Source of the DNA: Escherichia coli
GTDB taxonomy: Bacteria > Pseudomonadota > Gammaproteobacteria > Enterobacterales > Enterobacteriaceae
NCBI RefSeq assembly: GCF_016903815.1
Contig: NZ_CP069973.1
Strand: one strand, 5' to 3'
Length of the DNA: 64,000 nt
Below the pieces are notes generated by a model. The model saw only the letters and a program-made list of their open reading frames with translations, had not been told where the DNA came from and ran no database searches. Below, piece after piece: positions 1,622 to 4,831 of the stretch. The first letter of the stretch is position 1; every line of letters starts with the position of its first letter. A program made the position numbers and the translations under genes.

Positions 1622-1918
1622 TCAGGCAATTTTGCTATTTACGCAGCACTCCTCGCGTAAGAATTCAATTATCGCTTCCAGCATTGCGTATTGCGAAACA
1701 CACATCAGCGTTCGACTCTCACGGTTTTGTTTGACCAGCCCTACCGATACCAGTGCTGAAATATGGTGACTGAGTGTAGAGCCGGGTATCCCAAGCTGCT
1801 TTTGCAACTCACCGACCGGCAAACCTTGTTCCCCCGCTTTGACCAGGTGTTTGAATATGAACAAACGGGTCGGGTGACCTAGCTCTTTCAGCGCTTTAGC
1901 AACTTCTTCCAACTGCAT
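1622..1918 (-). CDS. ArsR/SmtB-family HTH transcriptional regulator (98 aa) with C-terminal cysteines
   Basis: LGHPTRLFIFKHL...STLSHHISALVSVGLV is the ArsR/SmtB winged-helix signature. No CVC motif in helix 3; cysteines are at LMCVSQ and the C-terminal EECC. Confidence 0.85.
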   Translation of the reverse strand: MQLEEVAKALKELGHPTRLFIFKHLVKAGEQGLPVGELQKQLGIPGSTLSHHISALVSVGLVKQNRESRTLMCVSQYAMLEAIIEFLREECCVNSKIA

Positions 1919-1943
1919 ATGACACCCCCTTTGTCTGGTTGAT

Positions 1944-2002
1944 ATTTCGATAATACCAGAAATATCTTGATCTGAATTTCATTTCGATTATTCTGGAAAT
2001 AT
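1944..2002. promoter_or_regulatory. Candidate operator: two copies of a ~22-bp motif in the divergent regulator/permease intergenic region
   Basis: atttcgataataccagaaatat (1944-1965) and atttcgattattctggaaatat (1981-2002), identical except the central CCAG/CTGG swap, between the two divergent start codons. Confidence 0.4.
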
Positions 2003-2013
2003 AGATTTATTCA

Positions 2014-3027
2014 ATGAGGTTACGTATGAGTAGTTGGCTTGCGATGCTGCAAGATGCCGCAGAGATGTTTGTGTTTCTCGCCGTTGAGCTTTCTTTGCTG
2101 TTTATAGTGATTAGTGCCGGTGTGAGCCTGATAAGACAAAAGGTGCCAGACCATAAAATCCAGCAGATGATGGGGGCCAGAAAAGGGAGAGGTTATCTCC
2201 TGGCTGCTCTGTTGGGAGCCGTTACCCCGTTCTGTAGTTGCTCGACAATACCCATGTTACGTGGATTGTTGTCAGCGAAAGCCGGGTTTGGTCCAACCCT
2301 TACTTTTTTATTTGTTTCACCGCTACTTAATCCCATTATCGTCGGACTAATGTGGGTGACCTTTGGCTGGAAAGTGACCTTGTTGTACGCGATTATCGCC
2401 GCCGGCGTCTCCGTACTTGCCAGTATTATCCTGGATTCTCTGGGATTTGAACGTCATATTATTGCCAGTAAAAGCTCATCAGCAAATTGTTGTGCTCCAG
2501 CCAAAACTTCGCCGGGGACGACATATACGCCAATAAAAGTGAGTTGCTGTAGTCCAGCGGCTAAAGCCATTGAGAAACCTGTAGTAAACTGTTGCAGTAC
2601 CAAAGCTGTGGTAAGTATTAATCCCATAAAACTAGCCACCAAAGATGCGTTGCAACAGTTTAAAGATGTACTGCCATATCTTTTGTTAGGGGTATTAATA
2701 GGCTCTTTTATTTATGGCTTTATTCCCTCAGAGTGGATTGCCGCTCATGCAGGGGCAGATAATCCCTTCGCCATCCCATTGAGCGCCGTTGTCGGTATTC
2801 CGCTATATATCCGGGCAGAGGCGGTTATCCCTCTGGCATCTGTTCTGATGACAAAAGGAATGGCTCTGGGAGCATTAATGGCATTAATCATCGGCAGTGC
2901 CGGCGCAAGCCTGACGGAAGTGATATTACTTAAATCAATGTTCAGAATACCGATGATAGTTGCATTCCTGACGGTTATATTAGGTATGGCTATCTTGATG
3001 GGCTATTTGACTCAAATGCTATTTTAA
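2014..3027 (+). CDS. Putative permease, DUF318/YraQ-ArsP-like, with TPFCSCS motif and a Cys-rich loop (337 aa)
   Basis: Multi-TM hydrophobic protein; AVTPFCSCSTIPMLRGLL matches the conserved ArsP-type motif as I recall it; central loop has three vicinal Cys pairs (NCCAP, SCCSP, NCCST). Confidence 0.8.
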   Translation: MRLRMSSWLAMLQDAAEMFVFLAVELSLLFIVISAGVSLIRQKVPDHKIQQMMGARKGRGYLLAALLGAVTPFCSCSTIPMLRGLLSAKAGFGPTLTFLFVSPLLNPIIVGLMWVTFGWKVTLLYAIIAAGVSVLASIILDSLGFERHIIASKSSSANCCAPAKTSPGTTYTPIKVSCCSPAAKAIEKPVVNCCSTKAVVSINPIKLATKDALQQFKDVLPYLLLGVLIGSFIYGFIPSEWIAAHAGADNPFAIPLSAVVGIPLYIRAEAVIPLASVLMTKGMALGALMALIIGSAGASLTEVILLKSMFRIPMIVAFLTVILGMAILMGYLTQMLF

Positions 3028-3607
3028 ATAGATGCCAGCAGTAAACTATAAGGAGCATTGTGAGTGCCTTATCCTTCTGAGTAGAAAATCATAGATAGGA
3101 TAATCTTTAAAAATCACAAATAACTTAACTAATGCTTTGAGAATGATGACGGATCCGTCAGTAAGTCATCAATCGACAATCACCACGCAATCATGCTTCT
3201 CTGACATTTTATCGGAGAAGCAATGTCTCTTTGTTTCAGTGCTATCCCCCCTTTTAAAGGGCAGATTTCAGTCGCCAATACAACACATTTTTAAATACAC
3301 TTTAACCTGGTTCATTATTACACATCTAAAACATCACAAAAATATCACTTCACACACTATCGGTGAACATCATAACTTTTTAAAATGAGCGCTTTTTGAT
3401 AGTTGTTAACGTTTTCCTTTACGATACTATCACTGCCCTTTTTTTATACACAAATATTACCGGGTGGAGATAAAAGGGAAATCAAAGGTAATTATATCAG
3501 GAAGAGATAACGCATTACATTTATTGTGTGTAGAAGAAAATCCATTCCTGTTCTAATTATCCAATTTAAACATCTTAGCATAAAACAAATGATGAATAAG
3601 GAATTTT

Positions 3608-4831
3608 ATGTCAATTGACTTTACCCCAGGTATAATAAATACATATCACGGCGATATTTATAACTGCACAACAAATACCGATAATGCTAAAACGCCAGAC
3701 ACACCGAAGTGGCCTTGCGATAATTTGGAAGAACAACAACCCATTAATTCCACATTCTCTGGAGAAGGATATACCTCTGATCAATATGATTTAGCGCAAC
3801 ACCAACTTCAACAAATTAATGCGTGCCACACGAACACTACATATACAAATGCAGAATACTCAAAAGTTGTGACTCAACTTGTAAGTCTTATTACTAACAT
3901 TGAAACGATAAGTTCGACACCACTTACGCAACAGACACAATCAATACTTAATCAGATTAATAACATTAGATACGAAAAAAACAAAAGTGCTGAATGTCGA
4001 ATCATTGTTGTCGCTAATCCTAAACCCGACAAGGCAATCATAACTAAAATTAGCGTAGAAGAGGGAATACCAGTAAGATTCAGTGTCCAAACCATGTTTT
4101 CAGATACTAATTTTATTGCTGAACAACGAGCTGACTTACCGACTAATATAAAAGATATTCAAAACCTGTATCAAAAAATGACGAAGTTATATATTGAGCA
4201 CAGTGAAAATAAAAACAGGATGAAAGTCTTTGCCGGAACCAACTTTATTGATTTCAATATGACAGGACAGAACCTGTCCGGGTTCGTTCTAACCTTGTCA
4301 AGGTTTTATTTCGAAGATCTACTTAATATAAATTTCACTGACGCAAATTTAGGTGACACTATTTTTTCACATAAAGAACACCCTGCCCCAAAATTATATA
4401 AAGACGAACAATATCTTGACAAACAAATCGAAGGTTTATTTTCAACATTATTAACCATTAATGACAACTTTTTACGAGCAAAAGCGGAAATTGCTTCGAC
4501 AATAATTAAATTCTTAGAGGCCAGGATAACCAATATTTCATACAATGACATATTAAAATATCAGCAAGAATTCAAAAAACAATGTTATAAGCAAGTTAAA
4601 GCCTTTACGACACTCTCCCGATACAATAAAATTCAAACATGGGCAGAAATGTCTGAATATCAATTCGAAGTATTTCAACGCGAGACGCTTAACCCAAAAA
4701 AAATGTCATGCGCACCTTATTTAAAGAGATCGCTACCTGATGAAAAAACTATAAATTATGGGGTGGAAATAGAAACACCAACTGGCAAAAGAATTCGCTT
4801 ATCAAATCATTACCAGAATATAATCCCATAA
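3608..4831 (+). CDS. Hypothetical AT-rich protein (407 aa) with a pentapeptide-repeat segment; possibly the intact counterpart of the K-12 yhiS pseudogene
   Basis: Long ORF in a markedly AT-rich stretch, no signal peptide. The segment [43 protein letters not shown] forms about nine consecutive pentapeptides with [DN][LFM] periodicity. Position between arsC and slp matches yhiS in K-12. Confidence 0.6.

Follow-up and report, generated by a model that had tools for sequence, protein, structure and literature searches.

ArsP of Campylobacter jejuni, a permease of family TC 2.A.119, exports methylarsenite (MAs(III)) and trivalent roxarsone and does not export arsenite, as the work of Chen 2015 is summarised in PMC6205960; by the same source, it is the only member of the family to have been tested for efflux of trivalent organoarsenicals. 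The hallmark of ArsP proteins is a conserved C(S/T)C motif, preceded by 'tPF' in the proteins of cluster 2 (PMC4435449). Here we describe a relative encoded in a stretch of 64,000 nucleotides of Escherichia coli DNA (contig NZ_CP069973.1, hereafter the window), which forms a two-gene module with a divergent ArsR/SmtB-family regulator and carries three vicinal cysteine pairs (CC dyads) in the loop that joins its two halves. Comparisons across homologues indicate that these pairs are under selection, and we tentatively suggest that they may help the carrier to handle a thiophilic metalloid.

Over its full length the permease is 32% identical to C. jejuni ArsP (E = 5e-54), and in the alignment of the two proteins both the TPFCSCS motif and the first CC dyad of the loop coincide. 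We found nothing specific in the literature on an E. coli or plasmid-borne arsP-like module, and the annotation of its two genes goes no further than 'permease' and 'ArsR/SmtB family transcription factor'.

An ArsP-family permease with paired cysteines in its central loop

The permease gene lies on the plus strand at 2026..3027 (RefSeq start 2026, 333 aa, WP_001521528.1, 'permease'). A GAGG stands 6 nt upstream of the RefSeq start, and a longer open reading frame (ORF) spans 2014-3027 and encodes 337 aa. The product matches Pfam ArsP_1 (PF03773) with E = 2.8e-52 over residues 13-334, covering model positions 3-293 of 294, which confirms its earlier description as a permease, and we regard it as a new, uncharacterised member of the ArsP family.

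Its TPFCSCS motif (2224..2244, plus strand; residues 71-77 of the 337-aa form) contains the presumed transport-site dithiol Cys-Ser-Cys and has 'tPF' ahead of CSC, as in ArsP cluster 2. C74 and C76 of this motif are the sole cysteines of the permease outside the three dyads. The motif is invariant in an alignment of close homologues (A1) and nearly invariant in a second alignment (A2). It is also present in 78 of 80 species-level loci, the other two having TPFCACS and SPFCSCS, with PFCSCS itself being the pattern of the genome scan by which these loci were collected.

Two more specific NCBIfam families were tried for the permease and rejected. It scores 109.2 bits against the SO_0444 Cu/Zn efflux model (NF033936), the equivalog cutoff of which is 300 and is reached by none of 10 diverse relatives of the permease; against SaoE (NF040736) it scores 87.6 bits where 325 are needed, and no SAO genes are found nearby. 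The CSC motif, replaced by USC in some selenoprotein members, is known from both families (bioRxiv 10.1101/2022.07.06.499078). The E. coli permease shares with them this motif and the overall fold family (the same Pfam family), but differs from both in that its scores (109 and 88 bits) fall far below the respective cutoffs (300 and 325).

The central loop between the two structural repeats is encoded at 2458..2622 on the plus strand (residues 149-203 in the 337-aa form, 145-199 in the 333-aa form) and is rich in Cys, Ser, Thr, Ala, Pro and Lys. In-frame translation of 2464-2600 gives ASKSSSANCCAPAKTSPGTTYTPIKVSCCSPAAKAIEKPVVNCCS; the peptide quoted in the earlier, sequence-only reading of this DNA ends 6 bases later, at 2606. 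All three dyads are encoded on the plus strand: dyad 1, the 'anchor' dithiol, at 2488..2493 (residues 159/160 of the 337-aa form and 155/156 of the 333-aa form), 11 residues into the loop, and the two lineage-specific additions, dyad 2 at 2545..2550 (178/179 and 174/175) and dyad 3 at 2590..2595 (193/194 and 189/190).

The three CC dyads which that reading placed in this segment are thus confirmed by the sequence, and both their number and their adjacency exceed chance. At the E. coli Cys frequency of 1.16%, the probability of at least six Cys in 55 aa is 4e-5; given six Cys across 55 positions, three dyads have a probability of 0.007. Across all frames of the 64-kb window, the one other stretch with at least three overlapping CC counts per 45 aa contains a single CCCC run. 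Cys accounts for 6 of the 55 loop residues (11%), exclusively in CC arrangement, and is accompanied by one Tyr. When a metallothionein-like composition (~15-30% Cys, clusters of CxC, CC and CxxC, few aromatics) is taken as a yardstick, the loops of homologues P0253, P0259, L021 and L068 come nearer to it than the E. coli loop does. No tandem repeat was found in the E. coli loop at the DNA level, and repeat-like CC units are visible at the protein level only.

A set of 117 close homologues from Escherichia, Salmonella, Citrobacter, Proteus, Enterobacter and Aeromonas yielded 92 distinct loops, which range from 52 to 99 aa and have a mean identity to the query of 0.29, compared with 0.87 in the membrane core. 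All 92 contain at least four Cys and at least one CC, and they hold 239 CC dyads in total; shuffling that preserves composition leaves 54.5±6.7 (at most 80 in 2000 shuffles), so that the excess is 4.4-fold. In a wider set of 95 representatives clustered at 50% identity, 59 dyads were counted against 13.9±3.4 after shuffling (4.2-fold). The commonest spacing between successive loop cysteines is 1 (59 cases), followed by 2 (24 cases), and Cys makes up 5.2% of loop residues versus 1.2% of the remainder of the protein. The number of dyads per loop varies from 1 to 4 in close relatives and reaches 7 in homologue P0122.

At the species level, Cys occurs in 44 of the 80 loops. The first Cys falls at loop position 10-18 in 39 of the 44, as part of CC in 20 cases and of CxxxC in 15, and this position-conserved first cysteine spans C. 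jejuni, Helicobacter, Vibrio, Shewanella, Aquificaceae, Chloroflexi and haloarchaea. We conclude from these comparisons that the cysteine pairs of the loop are under selection. Judged by its distribution, dyad 1 is an old anchor dithiol located 10-18 residues past transmembrane helix (TM) 4 and shared with C. jejuni ArsP, while dyads 2 and 3 are later, lineage-specific gains, the 'three pairs' being a detail of the E. coli lineage.

Repeated units are evident in some of the more distant loops. An Endozoicomonas loop (L022) contains SCCxSKPAPK three times, and that of a Lentisphaeria metagenome-assembled genome (L039) contains a 20-aa dyad-bearing unit three times, the repeats being perfect or near-perfect in both. 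Since the dyads sit within these tandem peptide repeats, the loops evidently grow by unit duplication. Permease alleles within E. coli differ by in-frame indels in the loop.

Predicted fold and membrane topology

An AlphaFold model of the permease, built on 91 diverse homologues, has a predicted local distance difference test score (pLDDT) of 88.4 and a predicted template modelling score (pTM) of 0.85. It consists of two equivalent helix sets, 2-144 and 200-332, linked by a disordered loop (residues ~145-199 in 333-aa numbering) with a pLDDT of about 50 and no secondary structure. Each modelled half is composed of a long helix, a short helix, a pair of helices of 12 and 13 residues, a broken helix and a final long helix. 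TPFCSCS is located at the junction of the helix pair of the first half, with residues 67-70 forming a helix break. In its fold the model agrees with hairpin transporters, and its halves resemble hairpin-containing repeats more than plain 4-TM bundles. We read the short helix pairs as re-entrant hairpins, with TPFCSCS at the tip of hairpin 1; each half would then cross the membrane three times, and the two halves would be inverted relative to one another.

Counted over the family, Lys and Arg residues average 8.0 in the central loop, 4.5 in the segment that follows TM1 and 2.0 in the one that precedes the last TM; the two termini and the segment following TM5 have 0.1-1.1. With the hairpin topology, these counts bring the positively charged segments and the entry of hairpin 1 to one and the same, cytoplasmic side of the membrane. 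The central loop most probably faces the cytoplasm, on the side from which substrate enters. Its cytoplasmic location had simply been assumed in the sequence-only reading, and now draws inferential support from the fold and the positive-inside rule. The Transporter Classification Database (TCDB) describes the family as having 4+4 transmembrane segments, the halves being separated by a hydrophilic loop of variable size (PMC7176098). We rejected a plain 8-TM (4+4) arrangement, which would place one strongly positive loop outside.

The divergent regulator and its operator region

Upstream of the permease gene, on the minus strand at 1622..1918, is a gene for an ArsR/SmtB-family regulator of 98 aa with a conserved Cys73 and a C-terminal Cys91-Cys92 pair (…FLREECCVNSKIA). 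The protein scores 61.9 bits against NCBIfam HTH_metalloreg (cutoff 55), and its closest solved relative is AfArsR of Acidithiobacillus ferrooxidans (6J05, E = 4.7e-10). Its 'LREECC' aligns with 'LTENCC' of AfArsR, which brings its CC onto Cys95-Cys96 in the type-2 As(III) site. AfArsR binds As(III) through Cys95, Cys96 and Cys102, whereas SpArsR, which is selective for MAs(III), uses the vicinal pair alone (both PMC11868830, PMC13236881). The E. coli regulator has no equivalent of Cys102, as it ends in CCVNSKIA with no later Cys, and the longer plasmid alleles lack it as well.

In having the vicinal pair and no Cys102 equivalent, the regulator resembles SpArsR; it differs from AfArsR in its third conserved cysteine, Cys73, at the junction of the wing and helix alpha-5. 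Going by the sequence, Cys73 could complete a three-coordinate site, and as it is conserved in the regulator and absent from AfArsR, the sensing site may represent an undescribed arrangement. The signature 'REGRTL[FY]C…FLQ[DE]ECC' recurs in regulators paired with this clade of permeases in many genera. Because the CC pair of the regulator aligns with the As(III) pair of AfArsR, the sensor and the loop of the permease have vicinal-dithiol chemistry in common.

The divergent promoter/operator region between the two genes (1929..2002) contains two tandem 37-nt repeats, each with an inverted repeat, including a perfect 8-nt inverted repeat, GATATTTC-N10-GAAATATC, at 1941-1966. A consensus scan detected promoter-like hexamers on both strands, and these are overlapped by the 37-nt repeats. 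The arrangement suggests that the two repeats probably form a double operator for the regulator.

Distribution and genomic context of the module

The window is chromosomal E. coli DNA, of which 2.1 kb are 100% identical to strain 7/2. The order of genes in the window is arsB (48-1061), arsC (1074-1499), the regulator (1622-1918, minus strand) and the permease (2026-3027), so that the module directly follows the arsC gene of arsRBC; 3' of the permease are a gene for a hypothetical protein of 407 aa and then slp, dctR, chuS and chuA. The two genes behave as a presence/absence unit of 1.66 kb at ~1630..3290, between arsC and a yhiS-like gene, and a terminator-like hairpin, found by consensus scan only, lies within this unit downstream of the permease (3194..3222, plus strand). 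E. coli genomes without the module match only positions ~1-130 and ~1790-2101 of window segment 1500-3600, and in O157:H7 TW14588 the hypothetical gene stands directly after arsC, with the module absent. The 407-aa ORF (3608-4831) was considered as a further part of the module and rejected, as it stays beside arsC in genomes that lack the module; located in a stretch of 32-35% G+C, it matches nothing in Pfam or NCBIfam and carries the annotation 'hypothetical'.

Of 5426 complete E. coli genomes, 2223 (~41%) have the module. The permease was also matched in 1001 plasmid records, with coverage of at least 80% in 856; these plasmids are mostly conjugative and come from Escherichia, Salmonella, Citrobacter and Klebsiella. 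In the three that we inspected (L002, which is pVM01, L003 and L004), the module is complete with its ArsR-like regulator and stands alone; one copy is flanked by IS1/Tn3 and another by IS26, and the third has antibiotic-resistance genes nearby.

In Citrobacter, the module follows the arsC gene of arsRDABC in a prophage-like region. Three loci of this type (L013-L015, 1230-7092) have arsRDABC and the module inserted between lambda-P/DnaT-like replication genes on one side and genes for DinI, RusA, holin and lysozyme on the other, and the whole appears to be lambdoid prophage cargo. In Endozoicomonas (L022, 1173-4730; L023, 2448-6388), the order is arsD, arsA, a permease with a CC-bearing loop, and a regulator with the ECC motif. 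Both assignments exceed their cutoffs (arsD 108.5 bits, cutoff 90; arsA 740.6 bits, cutoff 650), and neither ArsB nor Acr3 was called within ~2.5 kb of the permease. This order is the strongest single link of the system to trivalent arsenic or antimony, and it may be that an ArsP-type permease serves there as the membrane partner of the ArsA ATPase.

ArsR-family genes, found at 47 of the 80 species-level loci, are the most frequent neighbours. Neighbours were compared between permeases with fewer than two loop Cys (n=38) and those with at least two (n=42), shared ancestry being left uncorrected. An ArsE-like thioredoxin gene adjoins 10 of the former and 2 of the latter (p = 0.01), and a thiol-redox neighbour of any kind is present in 14/38 and 4/42 cases, respectively (p = 0.006). 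These distributions suggest that thiols in the loop and a dithiol protein encoded separately can stand in for one another. ArsE is mentioned in bioRxiv 10.1101/2022.10.17.512643. P1B-ATPase genes likewise neighbour 5/38 permeases with Cys-poor loops and 0/42 of the others.

Two further observations concern thiols in proteins encoded beside the permeases. MarR-family regulators with CC dyads of their own (…NKNCCQVGG… and a C-terminal …STVCCKPL) adjoin Cys-poor-loop permeases at 12/38 loci, compared with 1/42; they are represented by L076 (4480-4935) and found at 12 further loci, mostly in Bacillaceae with 16-aa loops devoid of Cys. At locus L021 (1932-2237 and 4227-4490), an ArsR-like regulator ends in …DCCEGGCGC and an ArsE-like thioredoxin in …GCSCGCCQ, so that Cys-rich tails occur on several proteins of that cluster.

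A proposed role for the loop, and its alternatives

We propose, with a confidence that stops a little short of even, that the loop is an accessory cytoplasmic dithiol tether by which a thiophilic metalloid is captured and handed on to the Cys-Ser-Cys of an ArsP-type exporter. That the loop is a soft-ligand element of some kind we hold with greater confidence than this proposal as a whole; we are less confident of the identity of the substrate and of a relay as opposed to a regulatory function.

According to this proposal, the exporter would be a secondary carrier built of two hairpin-containing repeats; the first hairpin would reach in from the cytoplasmic side and bear the transport site, Cys-Ser-Cys, at its tip. 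On the cytoplasmic face the two repeats would be joined by the loop, which would present dyad 1 as the anchor dithiol 10-18 residues past TM4, a short S-C-C-x-(S/A/P)-K/P-rich unit having expanded to give dyads 2 and 3. Two thiolates would be available from each vicinal pair, the ligand set for trivalent arsenicals in ArsD, in AfArsR/SpArsR and presumably in the regulator of the module. The dyads would bind a thiophilic metalloid in the cytosol, either As(III)/Sb(III) or a two-coordinate species such as methylarsenite or a reduced aromatic arsenical, and thereby raise the local concentration of substrate at the mouth of the inward-facing carrier. By exchange of thiol ligands the substrate would then move to Cys-Ser-Cys and be exported, and the same metalloid would release the AfArsR-like repressor from the two operator repeats, turning on the permease.

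The sequence-only reading had put forward the loop as a substrate-capture or metallochaperone-like domain with vicinal thiols of the kind that ligate trivalent arsenicals. Substrate capture gains ground from the thiol-rich and selected character of the loop and its arsenical context, and a fused, chaperone-like partner gains some from the complementarity with ArsE. A domain in the proper sense finds less support, as the loop shows no fold and no homology to ArsD or any other metallochaperone, and is not family-wide; when the full permease was scanned against NCBIfam, SO_0444 and SaoE were the only models hit, and ArsD was not among them. The loop may thus function in the manner of ArsD without being one. 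Ligation of trivalent arsenicals is made plausible by the likeness to C. jejuni ArsP, by the position of the regulator's CC on the AfArsR site and by the occurrence of relatives beside arsRBC, arsRDABC and arsD-arsA.

Several observations weigh against our proposal. Loop Cys is absent from 36 of the 80 species-level homologues, including clear ars-operon permeases in Firmicutes, where the loop has 16 residues. Conservation of the loop in homologues therefore holds only in part: all 92 close loops are thiol-rich and the position of the first dyad is widely kept, but the thiols must be considered accessory, and not part of the minimal transport machinery. Ars-type neighbours accompany 5/26 permeases with Cys-rich loops as opposed to 25/54 of the others, and the module stands alone on plasmids and in Aeromonas, so that the assignment to arsenic rests on a minority of contexts. 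A three-Cys (S3) site in the regulator could equally sense Cd, Pb, Hg or Cu(I), and the NCBIfam models closest to the permease are those for SO_0444 Cu/Zn efflux and then SaoE, both far under cutoff. Further to that, the topology of the loop rests on a predicted model and a charge bias, and the neighbour associations ignore shared ancestry. The ArsP-family literature that we searched mentions central-loop cysteines nowhere; a conserved tethered dithiol with expandable CC units appears to be undescribed so far.

A bolder version of the proposal would have the loop act as a cis-fused, intrinsically disordered multi-dithiol relay that replaces a separate partner of the ArsE type. Its anchor, held ~10-18 residues from TM4, would swing into the inward-facing cavity and deliver R-As(III) or As(III)/Sb(III) to Cys-Ser-Cys at the hairpin tip, and CC units that come and go through tandem duplication would tune capture. 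Together with its ECC sensor, the module would then be a self-contained mobile cassette against organoarsenicals or antimonials, unrecognised as a resistance determinant and spread over ~41% of complete E. coli genomes and hundreds of conjugative plasmids from poultry and clinical Enterobacteriaceae. We consider this version possible but rather unlikely.

The strongest of the competing explanations, in our view rather improbable, is that the same architecture serves one of the soft metal cations Cu(I), Cd(II), Zn(II), Hg(II) and Ag(I), with the loop as a metallothionein-like segment for binding and buffering. SO_0444, a Cu/Zn efflux family, is the best NCBIfam match of the permease, and a member of it is induced by Cd and Cu in Nitratiruptor (PMC10092412). 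Metallothionein-like loops with CxC/GCGC runs occur in homologues P0253 and P0259, those of P0257 and P0161 are His-rich, and one homologue with a CC loop lies among CDF and Metal_resist genes. The scarcity of ars neighbours around Cys-rich-loop permeases and the suitability of a three-Cys sensor site for Cd, Pb and Hg point in the same direction. However, the SO_0444 score is a little over a third of its cutoff (109 against 300), and none of the 10 diverse relatives reaches that cutoff either. Among solved structures the regulator is nearest to an As(III) sensor, with which its vicinal pair aligns, relatives of the permease are linked to arsD-arsA and arsRDABC, and P1B-ATPase genes neighbour only permeases with Cys-poor loops (5/38 vs 0/42).

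It is improbable that the loop, instead of relaying substrate, is a regulatory or redox switch, in which metal binding or a disulfide between dyads gates or auto-inhibits the carrier. Such control has been put forward for CDF and ZIP transporters and their His-rich loops; a disordered cytoplasmic loop that links repeats moving relative to each other in an elevator-type carrier would be well placed for it, and variable loop length and dyad copy number suit a tuning element. Yet no evidence prefers a switch to the capture of substrate, and the location of the dithiol near TM4, together with the complementarity with ArsE, is better suited to ligand handling.

A role of the module in reactive sulfur chemistry (persulfide, polysulfide or sulfite), with sulfane sulfur carried by the loop and sensed by the regulator through Cys-Cys bridging as in BigR and SqrR, is very unlikely. 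The regulator does match the BigR model and E. coli YgaV (3CUO), TauE and FmdE genes are found near one homologue, and thiol-redox genes are frequent neighbours family-wide. Nevertheless, the BigR score of 38.5 is far from the cutoff of 155, AfArsR is the better match with its CC aligned, and the characterised members of the permease family all handle a metal or metalloid.

Even less credible is a periplasmic loop with its cysteines in structural disulfides. A plain 8-TM (4+4) protein with its N-terminus outside, consistent with the 4+4 segments of the TCDB description (PMC7176098), would put the central loop outside; but any 8-TM reading exposes there either the post-TM1 loop (4.5 Lys+Arg) or the central loop (8.0), the modelled pairs of 12-13-residue helices are too short to span a membrane, the fold is that of hairpin transporters, and a disordered hypervariable segment is poorly suited to structural disulfides. 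Finally, a neutral low-complexity linker with functionless cysteines, to which hypervariability and the many homologues lacking loop cysteines might point, can hardly be reconciled with the retention of Cys content and adjacency far above shuffled expectation in 92 divergent loops and with the conserved position of the first dithiol.

The module is widespread and mobile in Enterobacteriaceae (2223/5426 complete E. coli genomes and ~850-1000 plasmids), often near IS elements and antibiotic-resistance genes, and should it export organoarsenicals or another thiophilic toxicant, it would be an overlooked determinant of co-selection, for example by arsenical feed additives. The picture of ArsP, which is now limited to the membrane-embedded Cys-x-Cys, would gain a step from a conserved dithiol tethered on the entry side, and the loop would exemplify, in a clean and mutable form, how a secondary transporter can carry a disordered ligand relay as a fused part. 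A role for ArsE, a poorly understood thioredoxin-like protein, is also suggested by its apparent complementarity with the loop thiols.

Comparison with known arsenic and metal systems

The E. coli permease has in common with C. jejuni ArsP the Pfam family, the TPFCSCS motif, the two-repeat layout, a CC at the equivalent position of the loop and an adjacent ArsR-family regulator. Cys65 and Cys67, reportedly the essential pair of the C. jejuni protein, fit its numbering from the M16 start. The two differ in the loop, where C. jejuni ArsP has one CC and one single Cys and the E. coli permease has three CC. They differ as well in their setting: C. jejuni arsP is part of an ars operon with Acr3, ArsC and an ArsR of the CxC type, whereas the E. 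coli gene and that of an 'ECC' regulator resembling AfArsR make up a separate, divergent two-gene module.

MTH895 and ArsE are comparable in being small dithiol (CxxC) partners that are genetically tied to ArsP-family permeases, but they are separate folded proteins and occur mostly where the loop of the permease is without thiols. Closer in the number of its dyads is ArsD, which, according to work of the Rosen laboratory, reportedly has three vicinal pairs (Cys12-13, Cys112-113 and Cys119-120). As proposed for the loop, the vicinal pairs of ArsD bind As(III)/Sb(III) and pass the metalloid to a transport component. ArsD, however, is soluble and folded, with a thioredoxin-like structure marked by Cys12-Cys13-Cys18, and makes its delivery to the ArsA ATPase, whereas the loop is disordered, covalently linked to its carrier and without sequence relationship to ArsD. 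Since Endozoicomonas has both, the loop is no simple replacement for ArsD.

Flexible segments bearing metal ligands are also known from the His-rich loops of CDF/ZnT and ZIP transporters, from the vicinal Cys pairs of MerT and MerF and from the C-terminal Cys-Cys of MerA. The likeness lies in flexible, ligand-rich segments on the side where substrate enters a transporter or enzyme, which bind a soft metal and pass it on through ligand exchange. The folds, on the other hand, are unrelated, the Mer system moves Hg(II) inward, the His-rich loops bind Zn(II), and none of these segments is known to be made of repeated CC units like those of the permease loop.

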